From IMG/VR virus record IMGVR_UViG_2880412407_000004: 55,013 nucleotides of DNA, one strand, 5' to 3'. A program made the position numbers and the translations under genes. Positions 27,274 to 48,528 of this stretch are shown here, in pieces. Numbering within the stretch: the stretch's first letter is position 1; the number at the start of each line of letters is the position of its first letter. Below the pieces are notes generated by a model that was not told the origin of the DNA, searched no databases, and saw only the letters and a list, made by a program, of their open reading frames with translations. The DNA is from a virus. Its lineage: Duplodnaviria; Heunggongvirae; Uroviricota; Caudoviricetes.

Positions 27274-27885
27274 ATGTGTTTTGATGTCGTCAATGCGAAA
27301 AATGTCAATGATATCAAATGGTTTTGTAAAAACACATGGTTGTTGTATCGCTTTTTATCGATGGCTTATGGAGAGGAGATGGCCTTTTTATTGAATAAAA
27401 GTGATATGGCCTCCTCCATCGGTATATCTGTTCAGGCATTTGATAAATGGGGCGTTCCTCCTGTTGAGCGTCGGGGGAGGGAAGTTTTTTATGACGTTAA
27501 AACTGTACTGGAGATAGATCGCGAGCGGCGACAACACAATCAGAGAATACCTGATGACGAGGGCGATCTGGAGGAAAGGCTGCTTCGGGCCAGAGCTGAA
27601 CTGACAGAAGAACAGGCCGTAGCTCAAAAACTTAAAAATCAGGTAACCGAAGGTAAGCTTATTGACACCGGATTCTGTATTTTTGCCCTCAGTAAGCTGG
27701 CAATGGCGTTATCCAGTACGCTTGATTCCATCCCTTTATCCATGCAACGACAGTTTCCTGATTTAACACCGCGCCATCTTGACCATCTGAAAACCCTTAT
27801 TGCTAAGGGGGCAAATCAGTGTGCGCGGGCGGGGGATAAATTACCGGATTTACTCGATGAATATATCAGAGCAACAACTGAATAA
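27274..27885 (+). CDS. nu1: Terminase small subunit (Nu1-like)
   Basis: 203-aa ORF; similarity to lambda Nu1 (FCIFALSKLAMALSSTLDSIPLSMQRQFPDLTPRHLDHLK vs lambda FCTFVLSRIAGEIASILDGLPLSVQRRFPEL). Confidence 0.8.
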   Translation: MCFDVVNAKNVNDIKWFCKNTWLLYRFLSMAYGEEMAFLLNKSDMASSIGISVQAFDKWGVPPVERRGREVFYDVKTVLEIDRERRQHNQRIPDDEGDLEERLLRARAELTEEQAVAQKLKNQVTEGKLIDTGFCIFALSKLAMALSSTLDSIPLSMQRQFPDLTPRHLDHLKTLIAKGANQCARAGDKLPDLLDEYIRATTE

Positions 27886-29783
27886 TATGATGAGTGCTGT
27901 CACAACAGCATTACAGCCCCTGATAAGGGCATTGCCGGTGACGCCAGTTGAATGGGCTGATCAAAATTATTATCTGCCTAAAGAATCTTCATATGGTGAG
28001 GGAGAATGGAAAACGCTGCCATTCCAGATCGCCATCATGAACAGCATGGGGAATGATCAGATCCGCACTGTTAATCTGATTAAATCTGCCCGTGTTGGCT
28101 ATACAAAGATGTTGCTGGGGTGGTCGGGTATTTTATTGAGCATAAATCCCGAAACAGTCTGCTTTTTCAGCCCACGGATTCTGCCGCTGAAGATTTTATG
28201 AAGTCTCACGTGGAGGCGACGATTCGGAACGTGCCATGCCTGAAAGACCTTTCCCCATGGCTGGGGCGTAAACATCGTGACAATACTCTCACGCTGAAAC
28301 GCTTTTCATCGGGCGTCGGTTTCTGGTGCCTGGGCGGTGCAGCCGCCAAAAACTACCGTGAAAAATCCGTGGACGTGGTCTGCTATGACGAACTTTCCTC
28401 GTTCGAGCCGGATGTCGAAAAAGAGGGCTCGCCAACCCTGCTGGGGATAAGCGTATTGAGGGCTCTGTATGGCCAAAATCCATTCGCGGCTCGACGCCTA
28501 AAATCAAAGGCACCTGCCAGATCGAAAAAGCGGCCAACGAGTCGGCGCATTTTATGCGTTTCTATGTGCCCTGCCCGCACTGTGGGGAGGCGCAGTATCT
28601 GAAATTTGGCGATGAATCCACGCCTTTTGGCCTTAAATGGGAGAAGGACAGCCCCGAAAGCGTTTTCTACCTCTGTGAACATCATGGCTGCGTGATCCAT
28701 CAGTCTGAGCTTGACCAGAGTAACGGGCGCTGGATCTGTGAAAACACGGGTATGTGGACCCGTGACGGCCTGACGTTTTTCAGCGCTGCGGGTAATGAAA
28801 TTCCGCCGCCGCGCTCCATCACGTTCCATATCTGGACGGCGTACAGTCCGTTCACCACCTGGGTACAGATTGTCTATGACTGGCTGGATGCACTGAAAGA
28901 TCCCAACGGCCTGAAAACCTTTGTGAACACCACGCTGGGCGAGACCTGGGAAGAGGCCGTGGGCGAAAAACTCGATCACCAGGTACTGATGGATAAGGTG
29001 GTGCGTTACACGGCGGCGGTGCCTGCCCGGGTGGTTTATCTGACGGCGGGCATTGACTCGCAGCGAAACCGTTTTGAGATGTATGTCTGGGGATGGGCTC
29101 CGGGAGAGGAAGCCTTTCTGGTGGATAAAATCATCATTATGGGGCGTCCTGATGAGGAAGAGACGCTGTTACGTGTGGATGCGGCGATCAACAAAAAATA
29201 CCGCCATGCGGATGGCACCGAAATGACTATTTCCCGTGTCTGCTGGGACACCGGGGGGATCGATGGTGAAATTGTTTATCAGAGATCAAAAAAACACGGT
29301 GTTTTCCGGGTGCTGCCGGTAAAAGGCGCATCTGTCTATGGCAAGCCGGTGATCACCATGCCAAAAACCCGCAATCAGCGGGGCGTGTATCTGTGTGAAG
29401 TGGGAACGGACACCGCAAAAGAAATTCTCTATGCCCGTATGAAAGCCGATCCCACGCCTGCGGATGAAGCCACGTCGTATGCCATCCGTTTTCCTGATGA
29501 TCCGGAGATTTTTTCGCAGACAGAGGCGCAGCAACTGGTGGCGGAAGAGCTGGTGGAGAAGTGGGAAAAAGGAAAGATGCGTCTGCTGTGGGATAACAAA
29601 AAGCGGCGTAACGAAGCGCTGGACTGCCTGGTGTATGCCTACGCGGCATTACGTGTGTCCGTGCAACGCTGGCAGCTTGATCTGGCTGTACTGGCAAAAT
29701 CCCGGGAAGAAGAGACGACCCGGCCAACCCTGAAAGAACTGGCAGCGAAGCTGTCCGGAGGAGTGAATGGTTACAGTCGCTGA
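27857..29783 (+). pseudogene. A: Terminase large subunit gpA, interrupted by two single-base deletions (as sequenced)
   Basis: Three consecutive ORFs (27800..28201, 28120..28602, 28554..29783) together align to lambda gpA; frame breaks at G-runs near 28116-28120 (CTGGGGTGG) and 28443-28446 (CTGGGGATAAG). Confidence 0.85.
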
Positions 29784-29973
29784 ACTGCAGGCGCTGCGTC
29801 AGGCGCGCCTTGATTTATTAACCGGTAAACGGGTGGTGTCTGTCCAGAAAGATGGTCGCAGAATTGAATATACGGCGGCTTCTCTGGATGAGCTTAACCG
29901 GGCGATCAATGATGCGGAGTCGGTACTGGGGACAACCCGGCGTCGCCGTCGTCCGCTGGGAGTGAGGTTATGA
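29767..29973 (+). CDS. W: Head-tail joining protein W
   Basis: 68-aa ORF; LTGKRVVSVQKDGRRIEYTAASL resembles lambda gpW. Confidence 0.9.
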   Translation: MVTVAELQALRQARLDLLTGKRVVSVQKDGRRIEYTAASLDELNRAINDAESVLGTTRRRRRPLGVRL

Positions 29974-46577: not shown

Positions 46578-47153
46578 ATGCGGCATTTATACGCAACGAT
46601 ATTATTGTTTACTACCCTGCTGGCAGGAATTGCCTTTCCTGCACAGGCTGAAAGCGGACACGGTGCATTTTCCGTGGGATATGCTCAGGTTCACCCGGGC
46701 GGCGTACCGGCATTGTCCGGTACCGGTGCGCGTGCAGGTGATTTAAAAGGGATTAATGTGAAATACCGTTATGAGTTCACGGATCACCTGGGCGGCATTG
46801 TCGCGCTGAGTTATGCATCGGTGAAGAAAAGTGACACGATGAAGACGGGTGAAAATACCTTCCATTATGAAAGCCTGCGCGGTCGTTATGTCAGTCTGAT
46901 GGCCGGGATGGCGTACACCCGCTGGTCTGACAGTGTTCAGGATTACCGGCGTGATGAAGTGAAACCGGGGTATGTGAAGGAGACCACCACCGCCAGTGAT
47001 GGCCATACTGCGCGTCATCTGTCGCCGGCCTGGAATGCCGGGATTCAGTTCAGTCCCGTAGAGACGGTGGTTATTGACCTTGCTTATGAAGGTTCCGCCA
47101 GTGGCGACTGGCGCACTGACGGCTTCATCGTGGGTATCGGCTATAAATTCTGA
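46578..47153 (+). CDS. lom: Lom-like outer-membrane protein (Ail/Lom family), shorter than lambda Lom
   Basis: Signal peptide MRHLYATILLFTTLLAGIAFPAQA; GINVKYRYE, HYESLRGRYVS, GDWRTDGFIVGIGYKF match lambda Lom; lacks about 15-20 internal residues. Confidence 0.8.
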   Translation: MRHLYATILLFTTLLAGIAFPAQAESGHGAFSVGYAQVHPGGVPALSGTGARAGDLKGINVKYRYEFTDHLGGIVALSYASVKKSDTMKTGENTFHYESLRGRYVSLMAGMAYTRWSDSVQDYRRDEVKPGYVKETTTASDGHTARHLSPAWNAGIQFSPVETVVIDLAYEGSASGDWRTDGFIVGIGYKF

Positions 47154-47217
47154 TTAGCCAGGTAACACAGTGTTATGACAGCCCGCCGGTTCAGGCGGGC
47201 TTTTTTGTGGGGTGAAT

Positions 47218-48528
47218 ATGGCAGTAAAGATTTCAGGTGTACTGAAAGACGGCACAGGAAAACCGGTAGAGAACTGTACCATTCAACTGAAAGCCAGACG
47301 GACCAGCAGCACGGTGGTGGTGAACACGGTGGCCTCTGAAAATCCGGATGAAGCCGGTCGTTACAGCATGGACGTTGAGTACGGTCAGTACAGCGTCATT
47401 CTGTTGGTGGAAGGATTCCCGCCGTCACATGCCGGGACCATCACCGTGTATGAAGATTCTCAACCGGGGACGCTGAATGATTTTCTCGGTGCCATGTCGG
47501 AGGATGACGTCCGTCCGGAGGCACTGCGTCGTTTTGAACTGATGGTGGAAGAAGCAGCGCGTCACGCAGAGGAGGCGAAGAAGAATGCCGGAGAAGCAGA
47601 GACGTCCGCGAGGAATGCCGGCATATCAGCCAGTAAGGCGGAAGCGAGCGCCGCAAATGCTGATACTTCAGCAGAGGATGCATCGGAGTCAGCCCGGCAG
47701 GCGGCAGAAAGTGCAGCCGCTGCAAAGCAGTCAGAGGAGGCGTCCTCGTCCTCGGCCTCTGCGGCCGCTCAAAAAGCCAGTGAGTCATTACAAAGTGCAG
47801 CAGAAGCTGAATTGTCAAGAAAGACGGCAGAAAGTGCAGCCGGTAATGCAGCCAGGGATGCAACGACCGCAACAGAAAAAGCCCGGGAGTCAGCAGAAAG
47901 CGCACAGTCAGCGGAACAAAGCAGGATAGCGGCGGAAGAGGCCGTAAACCGAATCCCCACCGTGGTGGGACCTCCCGGGCCAAAGGGGGAACAGGGGCCC
48001 GCGGGTCCTCAGGGGCCGAAGGGTGATAAGGGAGAGCGCGGTGACACCGGCCCTGTCGGGGCAACCGGCGAACGGGACCGGCAGGTGATGCTGGTCCGGC
48101 AGGCCAGCAGGGCCGAAAGGTGACAGGGGAGAGCGGGGAGAGACCGGTCTGACGGGAAATGCAGGTCCACAGGGTCCAAAGGGAGATACCGGTGCGGCAG
48201 GCCCGGCAGGCCCACAGGGACCGAAAGGAGAAACAGGTGCGGCTGGCCCGGTGGGGGCAACCGGACCTCAGGGACCGAAGGGCGACCCGGGGGAGACACA
48301 AATCCGTTTTCGTCTGGGGCCGGGAAACATTATTGAGACAAACAGCCATGGCTGGTTCCCGGATACAGATGGTGCGCTCATCACCGGACTGACCTTTCTT
48401 GACCCCAAAGATGCCACACGGGTTCAGGGTTTTTTCAGCATTTGCAGGTCAGGTTTGGTGACGGGCCGTGGCAGGATGTTAAGGGGCTTGATGAAGTGGG
48501 CAGTGATACAGGCAGAACAGGAGAATGA
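47218..48528 (+). pseudogene. stf: Side tail fibre protein with collagen-like Gly-X-Y repeats, interrupted by at least three single-base deletions
   Basis: N-terminus MAVKISGVLKDGTGKPVENCTIQLKARR... matches lambda Stf; Ala/Ser-rich region, then [28 protein letters not shown]... across frame breaks near 48074, 48113 and 48438-48446; corrected C-terminus ...[31 protein letters not shown]. Confidence 0.7.

Follow-up and report, generated by a model that had tools for sequence, protein, structure and literature searches.

Most of the large late genes of a lambda-like prophage appear to be broken, and the locus raises the question of whether these genes have decayed or whether the assembly misrepresents them. 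The prophage fills the 55,013-base window analyzed here (IMG/VR virus record IMGVR_UViG_2880412407_000004), which reads as an effector-carrying element with lambda immunity from an Escherichia coli that makes Shiga toxin (STEC) and is of the O121:H19 type. The window starts at the exact end of int and finishes at the exact end of an effector gene, and we therefore take it to be a cut-out provirus. A first-pass annotation had offered two readings of the broken late genes without choosing between them: decayed morphogenesis genes, or homopolymer under-calls in the assembly. We conclude that the 13 single-base deletions in the late region are very probably uncorrected homopolymer errors of the source assembly rather than gene decay, a judgment made here from the consensus sequence. 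We favor this explanation because (i) the deletions are private to this sequence, (ii) no private substitutions stand alongside them, (iii) they are confined to exact repeats, and (iv) elsewhere the window hardly differs from eight independent assemblies. The under-call reading is thus favored by deletions that are private and repeat-confined, and the decay reading finds no support in these 13 lesions.

The main reference was an orthologue, the prophage on the torS side in E. coli 2014C-3599 (NZ_CP027435.1, 2257046-2310773), aligned to the whole window by blastn. Eight complete STEC O121:H19 genomes in RefSeq carry this prophage and supplied the orthologue set, and three copies formed the paralogue set. 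Relative to 2014C-3599 the window has 13 single-base gaps between 28116 and 48540 (Table 1). The window is the shorter sequence at all 13, and each gap falls in a homopolymer (nine in G runs, two in C runs, one in a T run and one in an A run). The alignment confirmed every gene and motif named in the first-pass annotation, which had listed A (twice), C, FII, Z, U, H, I, J and stf (three times) as each one base short. Its estimate of at least twelve deletions in 27857-48528 was right for those twelve and slightly narrow in extent, as a 13th deletion lies in a tfa-like gene at 48540, 12 bases past the end of that interval. The annotation had also proposed that single inserted bases would restore the late frames. 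With the 13 bases reinserted, all 23 late open reading frames (ORFs) are restored and none contains an internal stop.

We asked what else distinguishes the broken genes from those of the relatives. The repaired late proteins are identical to those of 2014C-3599 except for A (11 amino acids, representing the allele of a paralogue), J (one amino acid) and the tfa product (one amino acid). Each substitution in the late region is either a known polymorphism among O121 strains or an allele of a paralogous prophage, so that the 11 broken genes hold 13 private frameshifts, no private substitutions, no nonsense changes and no larger deletions. In the relatives, gene A is intact and encodes 642 amino acids. 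Late genes are all annotated as intact in five of the eight orthologues, and the remaining three have one or two frameshifts or insertion sequence (IS) insertions, at places other than those of the window.

The rest of the window is close to invariant. The early 21.7 kb is approximately 100.0% identical between the window and the eight orthologues, and identity over the late region is 99.0-99.7%; no RefSeq complete E. coli genome matches the window at 100%. Over the roughly 34 kb outside 27747-48770, a single substitution (11145) and a single intergenic G8/G9 change (17290) separate the window from the relatives. Apart from a small alignment break at 3679-3699, these are also the only differences from the relative in 1-27746 and 50075-55013, which agrees with the earlier statement that the early genes are intact. 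Because this flank is nearly identical, the source strain must have split from its relatives extremely recently, leaving almost no time for mutations to build up.

This recency bears directly on genuine decay, in which the unselected morphogenesis genes of a cryptic prophage would have gained slippage frameshifts one by one while the early genes stayed intact. We regard this as very unlikely. Homopolymer slippage is a real mutational hot spot, and the alleles at 28116, 31823 and 38291 do exist in other prophages. The late module is also truly dispensable in this lineage: in relatives, IS600 or other IS3-family elements have inserted into the portal gene, J or stf, or into the interval from V to G. 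Against this, 34 kb of flank almost identical to eight relatives leaves no time for 13 independent events, and the divergence of this neutral flank (one substitution and one indel) is out of step with the number of lesions. None of the 13 is common by descent with any relative, including the eight O121:H19 genomes, and all 13 are deletions. The lesion spectrum is likewise not mixed: private substitutions, nonsense changes and larger deletions are lacking from the broken genes, and the amino acid changes are only paralogue or strain alleles. The window does resemble genuinely decayed lambdoid prophages of STEC in that several late genes are interrupted in an effector-carrying element. It differs from real decay within the O121 lineage, which consists of IS600/IS3-family insertion, internal stops and deletions common among strains, in having a private set of -1 run changes without substitutions.

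We next consider how private the deletions are. At all 13 sites the deletion allele is absent from the eight O121:H19 orthologues and from the three paralogous copies. A draft contig from another isolate (BDKV01000049) matches 28377-39778 with three substitutions and has none of the six deletions in that span. A 71-mer carrying both G-run deletions of stf was found at none of 4639 matching places in 5,426 genomes, and a 61-mer across two stf deletions had no exact match in the genome and viral contig collections. The deletion allele at the H site (38291) occurs in two of 689 matching RefSeq records, both of them complete genomes. When the truncated N-terminal proteins were looked up exactly, those from the sites at 28116 (A) and 31823 (C) recurred in other prophage lineages, approximately 96-99% identical, but were absent from the orthologues in O121. 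Both runs look to be hot spots of real slippage and of error alike. The truncated N-terminal fragments of Z, H, J and stf had no exact match in the protein collection searched. C-terminal fragments proved uninformative as a sign of a shared frameshift, since any upstream break yields the same ORF; the matches found to the H and A C-terminal fragments do not share the deletions of the window. We note that in some carriers of the 28116 and 31823 alleles many further late genes are broken (for example GCA_900449745.1/UGEE01, CP043025 and RLKF03), and that others are metagenome or Logan contigs in which the deletion is the only break.

What the first-pass annotation missed is why this segment is affected: judging from the chromosomes of the relatives, the late module is an intragenomic repeat. 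Apart from the deletions, most of it is identical to the late module of a second prophage (R1 in Table 1), and in 2014C-3599 the torS-side and torT-side prophages share their WP_ protein accessions for the products of genes W to L. The J-lom-stf-tfa end is repeated in a third prophage (R2), and a 429-bp stretch around the gene I deletion (42117-42545) is identical to this third, serT-hyaA-side prophage. In total, 19.7 kb (36%) of the window is duplicated exactly elsewhere in the chromosome of the relatives. All 13 deletions fall within this part, for which the chance by length alone is 0.357^13 = 1.6e-6. Among G/C runs of at least four bases, 10 of 138 are hit inside the repeats and 0 of 120 outside (Fisher P = 0.002); among A/T runs of at least seven bases, the counts are 2 of 4 inside and 0 of 25 outside (P = 0.015). 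The hit rate inside the repeats climbs with run length, from 5 of 102 G/C runs of four bases to 4 of 32 of five bases and 1 of 4 of six bases. Relaxed selection cannot explain why the deletions cluster in exact repeats instead of tracking the density of runs.

Other accounts of the clustering were examined and set aside. Homopolymer density or GC content cannot be the cause, as the sequence beyond the repeats contains 120 G/C and 25 A/T susceptible runs without a single hit. Motifs for Dcm or Dam methylation were rejected as an error context; by eye, only one site (CCAGGGGG at 38291) overlaps CCWGG. Counts of places in the record were tried as a measure of repetition and gave 13-14 for early and late regions alike, and we replaced them by direct alignment of the paralogous prophages.

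Table 1. Late genes with single-base deletions, exact repeats of the late module, and the neighboring IS600 element (window positions)
Feature	Description	Coordinates	Strand	Observation
A	Terminase large subunit	27857..29783	+	Three ORFs; deletions at 28116 and 28442, both G5 to G4
C	Head protease/scaffold (S49 peptidase)	31552..33056	+	Split; deletion at 31823, G6 to G5
FII	Head-tail joining	34954..35306	+	Broken; deletion at 34992, G4 to G3
Z	Tail gene	35321..35853	+	Broken near 3' end; deletion at 35797, C3 to C2
U	Tail terminator	35850..36244	+	Broken; deletion at 35906, G4 to G3
H	Tape measure	37870..40448	+	Split into 161 + 693 amino acids; deletion at 38291, G5 to G4
I	Tail assembly	42218..42798	+	Broken; deletion at 42369, G5 to G4
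J	Tail tip	43034..46509	+	Split; deletion at 45781, C4 to C3
stf	Side tail fiber	47218..48528	+	Broken; deletions at 48073 and 48109 (G4 to G3) and 48429 (T7 to T6)
tfa-like	Tail fiber C-terminal	48530..48798	+	Broken; 13th deletion at 48540, A7 to A6
Repeat R1	Late module of second prophage, adjoining torT (NZ_CP027435.1, ~2.044-2.058 Mb)	27673..41700		Identical except for 7 deletions
Repeat R2	J-lom-stf-tfa end of third prophage, adjoining serT-hyaA (NZ_CP027435.1, 2.226-2.232 Mb)	43602..48804		Identical except for 5 deletions and 3 strain polymorphisms
IS600	IS3 family	48805..50075	-	Inserted just after tfa

Two patches within the late region carry alleles of the other prophages. The first, 27747-28416 on the plus strand, shows approximately 46 substitutions relative to the orthologue and is the allele of the torT-side paralogue, from which it differs only by two gaps (721 versus 723 bases). 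Through this patch the left edge of R1 is displaced about 0.7 kb leftward relative to other O121 strains. The second is a two-base micro-patch in J, at 43288 and 43291, that is the J allele of the third prophage. We considered whether the 27747-28416 patch marks the import of a diverged, already decayed module and rejected this, as a paralogue within the genome carries this very allele, intact.

These patches also bear on a possible recombination-linked mutation shower. In this view, gene conversion or break-induced repair with an error-prone (Pol IV-like) polymerase would have spread the late module among the three near-identical prophages, and a cluster of -1 frameshifts in G runs would be its trace. 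The deletions do sit exactly in recombining repeats and beside the paralogue-allele tracts (27747-28416 and 43288/43291), the lineage has clearly swapped prophage halves through these repeats, and the signature is one of -1 changes with a G/C bias. In double-strand-break repair, the changes introduced by E. coli Pol IV (DinB) are mostly -1 deletions in short runs. Such a shower would nevertheless need about 7% of the G/C runs to be mutated over some 20 kb in a single lineage, which to our knowledge lies far above in vivo rates. It would also need low-processivity synthesis to continue over 20 kb and to escape mismatch repair, and to do so with no private base substitutions alongside. Similar sporadic indels in other long-read assemblies point instead to the technology. 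We consider a shower of this kind very improbable.

A mismatch-repair-deficient mutator would account for the finding that all 13 sites are runs, since mutators yield mainly one-base indels in runs. It would, however, leave transitions and indels throughout the remaining 34 kb as well, where none of 145 susceptible runs is hit. Real frameshifts could alternatively mark phase-variable or programmed sites; the runs are short (3-7 bases) and lie within structural genes, and the relatives are in frame at 13 of 13 sites. We found no conserved programmed frameshift or phase-variable run among these sites, and only the normal G-T arrangement is present. To real frameshifts of either origin, from a mutator or from such sites, we give almost no credence.

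We return to assembly error and to how it would have arisen. Resolving a 55-kb prophage through exact repeats of 14 kb and 5 kb would have needed long reads or clone-based finishing, and from this we infer the platform and polishing history of the source sequence. The primary consensus of such methods would shorten homopolymers, above all G/C runs. Correction with mapped reads would then succeed wherever placement is unique, as in the early region, the effector region and the short IS copies spanned by long reads. It would fail inside long near-identical repeats, where mapping is ambiguous or reads come from the wrong copy. The paralogue-allele tracts (27747-28416 and 43288/43291) would stem from the same cross-talk between reads, or from genuine gene conversion.

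This scheme fits what is described for other assemblies. The Polypolish paper (PMC8812927) gives homopolymer-length errors as the commonest error left in long-read assemblies and describes them as persisting in repeats after short-read polishing. Errors of this type in long-read or 454-based bacterial assemblies, the problem that Polypolish addresses, resemble the deletions here in that one-base run errors create false frameshifts, are repeat-specific and are absent from independent assemblies of the same clone. The window differs from them in that its 13 errors are all under-calls with a strong bias to G/C runs, and in that the repeats involved, 14 kb and 5 kb long, are entire late modules of prophages rather than IS or rRNA copies. 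Three corresponding features are found in the window: one-base homopolymer changes at 13 of 13 sites, absence from independent assemblies of the clone, and confinement to repeats with clean unique sequence around them. Sporadic one-base indels in homopolymers, one or two per assembly, also occur at other runs of this repeated late module in further long-read O121 assemblies (NZ_CP027317.1, NZ_CP027351.1 and NZ_CP027454.1). Strain 2015C-3107 has G5 to G4 changes in FII and in J, 2014C-3655 has a G5 to G4 change in the H gene of a paralogue, and 2014C-3655 and 2014C-4423 share a T5 to T6 change in the capsid gene E. Complete O121:H19 lineage-1 genomes have been produced by quite different routes: 51104 by 454 and Sanger sequencing with correction by 65-bp Illumina reads and MAQ, RM8352 by PacBio, and E15042 by MinION R9.4.1 with Unicycler (PMC8767318). 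These three genomes were not among our RefSeq search matches.

Several observations weigh against assembly error as a complete account. The alleles at 28116, 31823 and 38291 occur elsewhere, indicating real slippage at these runs, so that one or two of the 13 deletions may be real mutations. Gene conversion, and not read cross-talk, could have produced the paralogue-allele patches. At 17282-17290, in the intergenic stretch from lpxR to ylcG, the window has a G9 run where three relatives have G8, an over-length change in the direction opposite to an under-call. Finally, the multi-copy IS66-family and IS600 copies are free of errors, although they contain only 13 and 3 susceptible runs and this carries little weight.

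The prophage may be cryptic for reasons that it has in common with its relatives and that do not involve the 13 sites. Lesions found in all of the relatives examined include an IS66-family element (tnpA/B/C, at about 21.8-24.4 kb) and a DUF6645/SASA esterase gene with an internal stop (within approximately 19651-26660). A frameshifted rha-like gene (approximately 25953-26660) and a 72-bp antiterminator remnant near 15842 are also common to them. In the torS-side prophage of the relatives (NZ_CP027435.1, 2.257-2.311 Mb), int adjoins torS and the right end adjoins potB. Among the other prophages of that chromosome (2.018-2.069 and 2.184-2.234 Mb), one starts at potC and ends at serT-hyaA, and another ends at torT. 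Evidently, to judge from these junctions, the prophage halves underwent a three-way swap by homologous recombination in their common late modules. Given the mismatched flanks of the three prophages, the two ends of the window element would therefore come from different integration sites. With such non-cognate ends the element is probably unable to excise by its own integrase and locked in the chromosome. IS insertion, as seen in the late genes of the relatives, is the real route of decay in the O121 lineage.

In organization the window follows lambda closely. The early part holds int/xis, exo-bet-gam, lambda-type cI/cro with OR1-OR3 operators, O, P, ren and the nin genes. Beyond it come lpxR, Q, the IS66-family element, a lysis cassette and a full late operon from Nu1 to tfa, followed downstream by IS600 and a block of type III effector genes. 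The late module is collinear with lambda from Nu1/A to J-lom-stf-tfa, and its protein families match (by RefSeq annotation of the orthologue, and by Pfam matches on the paralogues). The likeness to the lambda late operon extends to the same Pfam families in the order Nu1-A-W-B-C-D-E-FI-FII-Z-U-V-G-T-H-M-L-K-I-J-lom-stf-tfa, and the immunity region has the lambda OR1-OR3 operators. In contrast to lambda, the window shows only about 85% DNA identity to lambda-type phages, is chromosomal with non-cognate ends, and carries type III secretion system (T3SS) effector genes and lpxR as cargo. The lipid A deacylase gene lpxR (16057-17016, minus strand) lies between the nin region and Q. The cargo at the right end (50179-55013) comprises T3SS effectors of the DUF1076/NleG family, EspW and the WxxxE family, and is 100% identical to that of the relative.

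The torS-side prophage of lineage-1 O121:H19 strains (for example NZ_CP027435.1) has the same insertion context, gene order and sequence as the window, and shares its IS66-family insertion, the DUF6645 internal stop and the frameshifted rha. Compared with this orthologue, the window alone has the 13 deletions, the paralogue allele at the 5' end of A and the two-base patch in J, together with IS600 after tfa, a substitution in OR1 and an intergenic G run that is one base longer. IS600 is absent from this site in all RefSeq O121 genomes, and we therefore take the insertion to be a real strain marker. The OR1 change (11145, between cI and cro) is the only substitution in the early 27.7 kb relative to three relatives; it converts the lambda-type operator from TACCTCTGGCGGTGATA to TACCTCTTGCGGTGATA, and could be either a true mutation of the operator or an erroneous base. 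We also observed that the alignment to 2014C-3599 breaks at 3679-3699, inside an ead/Ea22-like gene that encodes 135 amino acids in the window and in 2014C-3655 and 125 in 2014C-3599. This length difference suggests a short in-frame polymorphism in repeat number.

Based on these comparisons, we strongly favor the conclusion that the 13 deletions do not reflect real biology. This prophage most likely has intact late genes, like the majority of the related strains that were examined. Were the deletions real, they would represent an unusually dense, recombination-linked burst of frameshifts that inactivated one prophage copy in a single step. The signature of such an artifact can be read from sequence alone, and has three parts: (i) private one-base deletions in runs, (ii) no other lesions, and (iii) co-location with exact intragenomic repeats. 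Near-identical prophage late modules are precisely where assembly polishing fails. In STEC genomes, such errors can distort how many pseudogenes are counted, whether a prophage is called intact or cryptic, and how inducible its phages are estimated to be.

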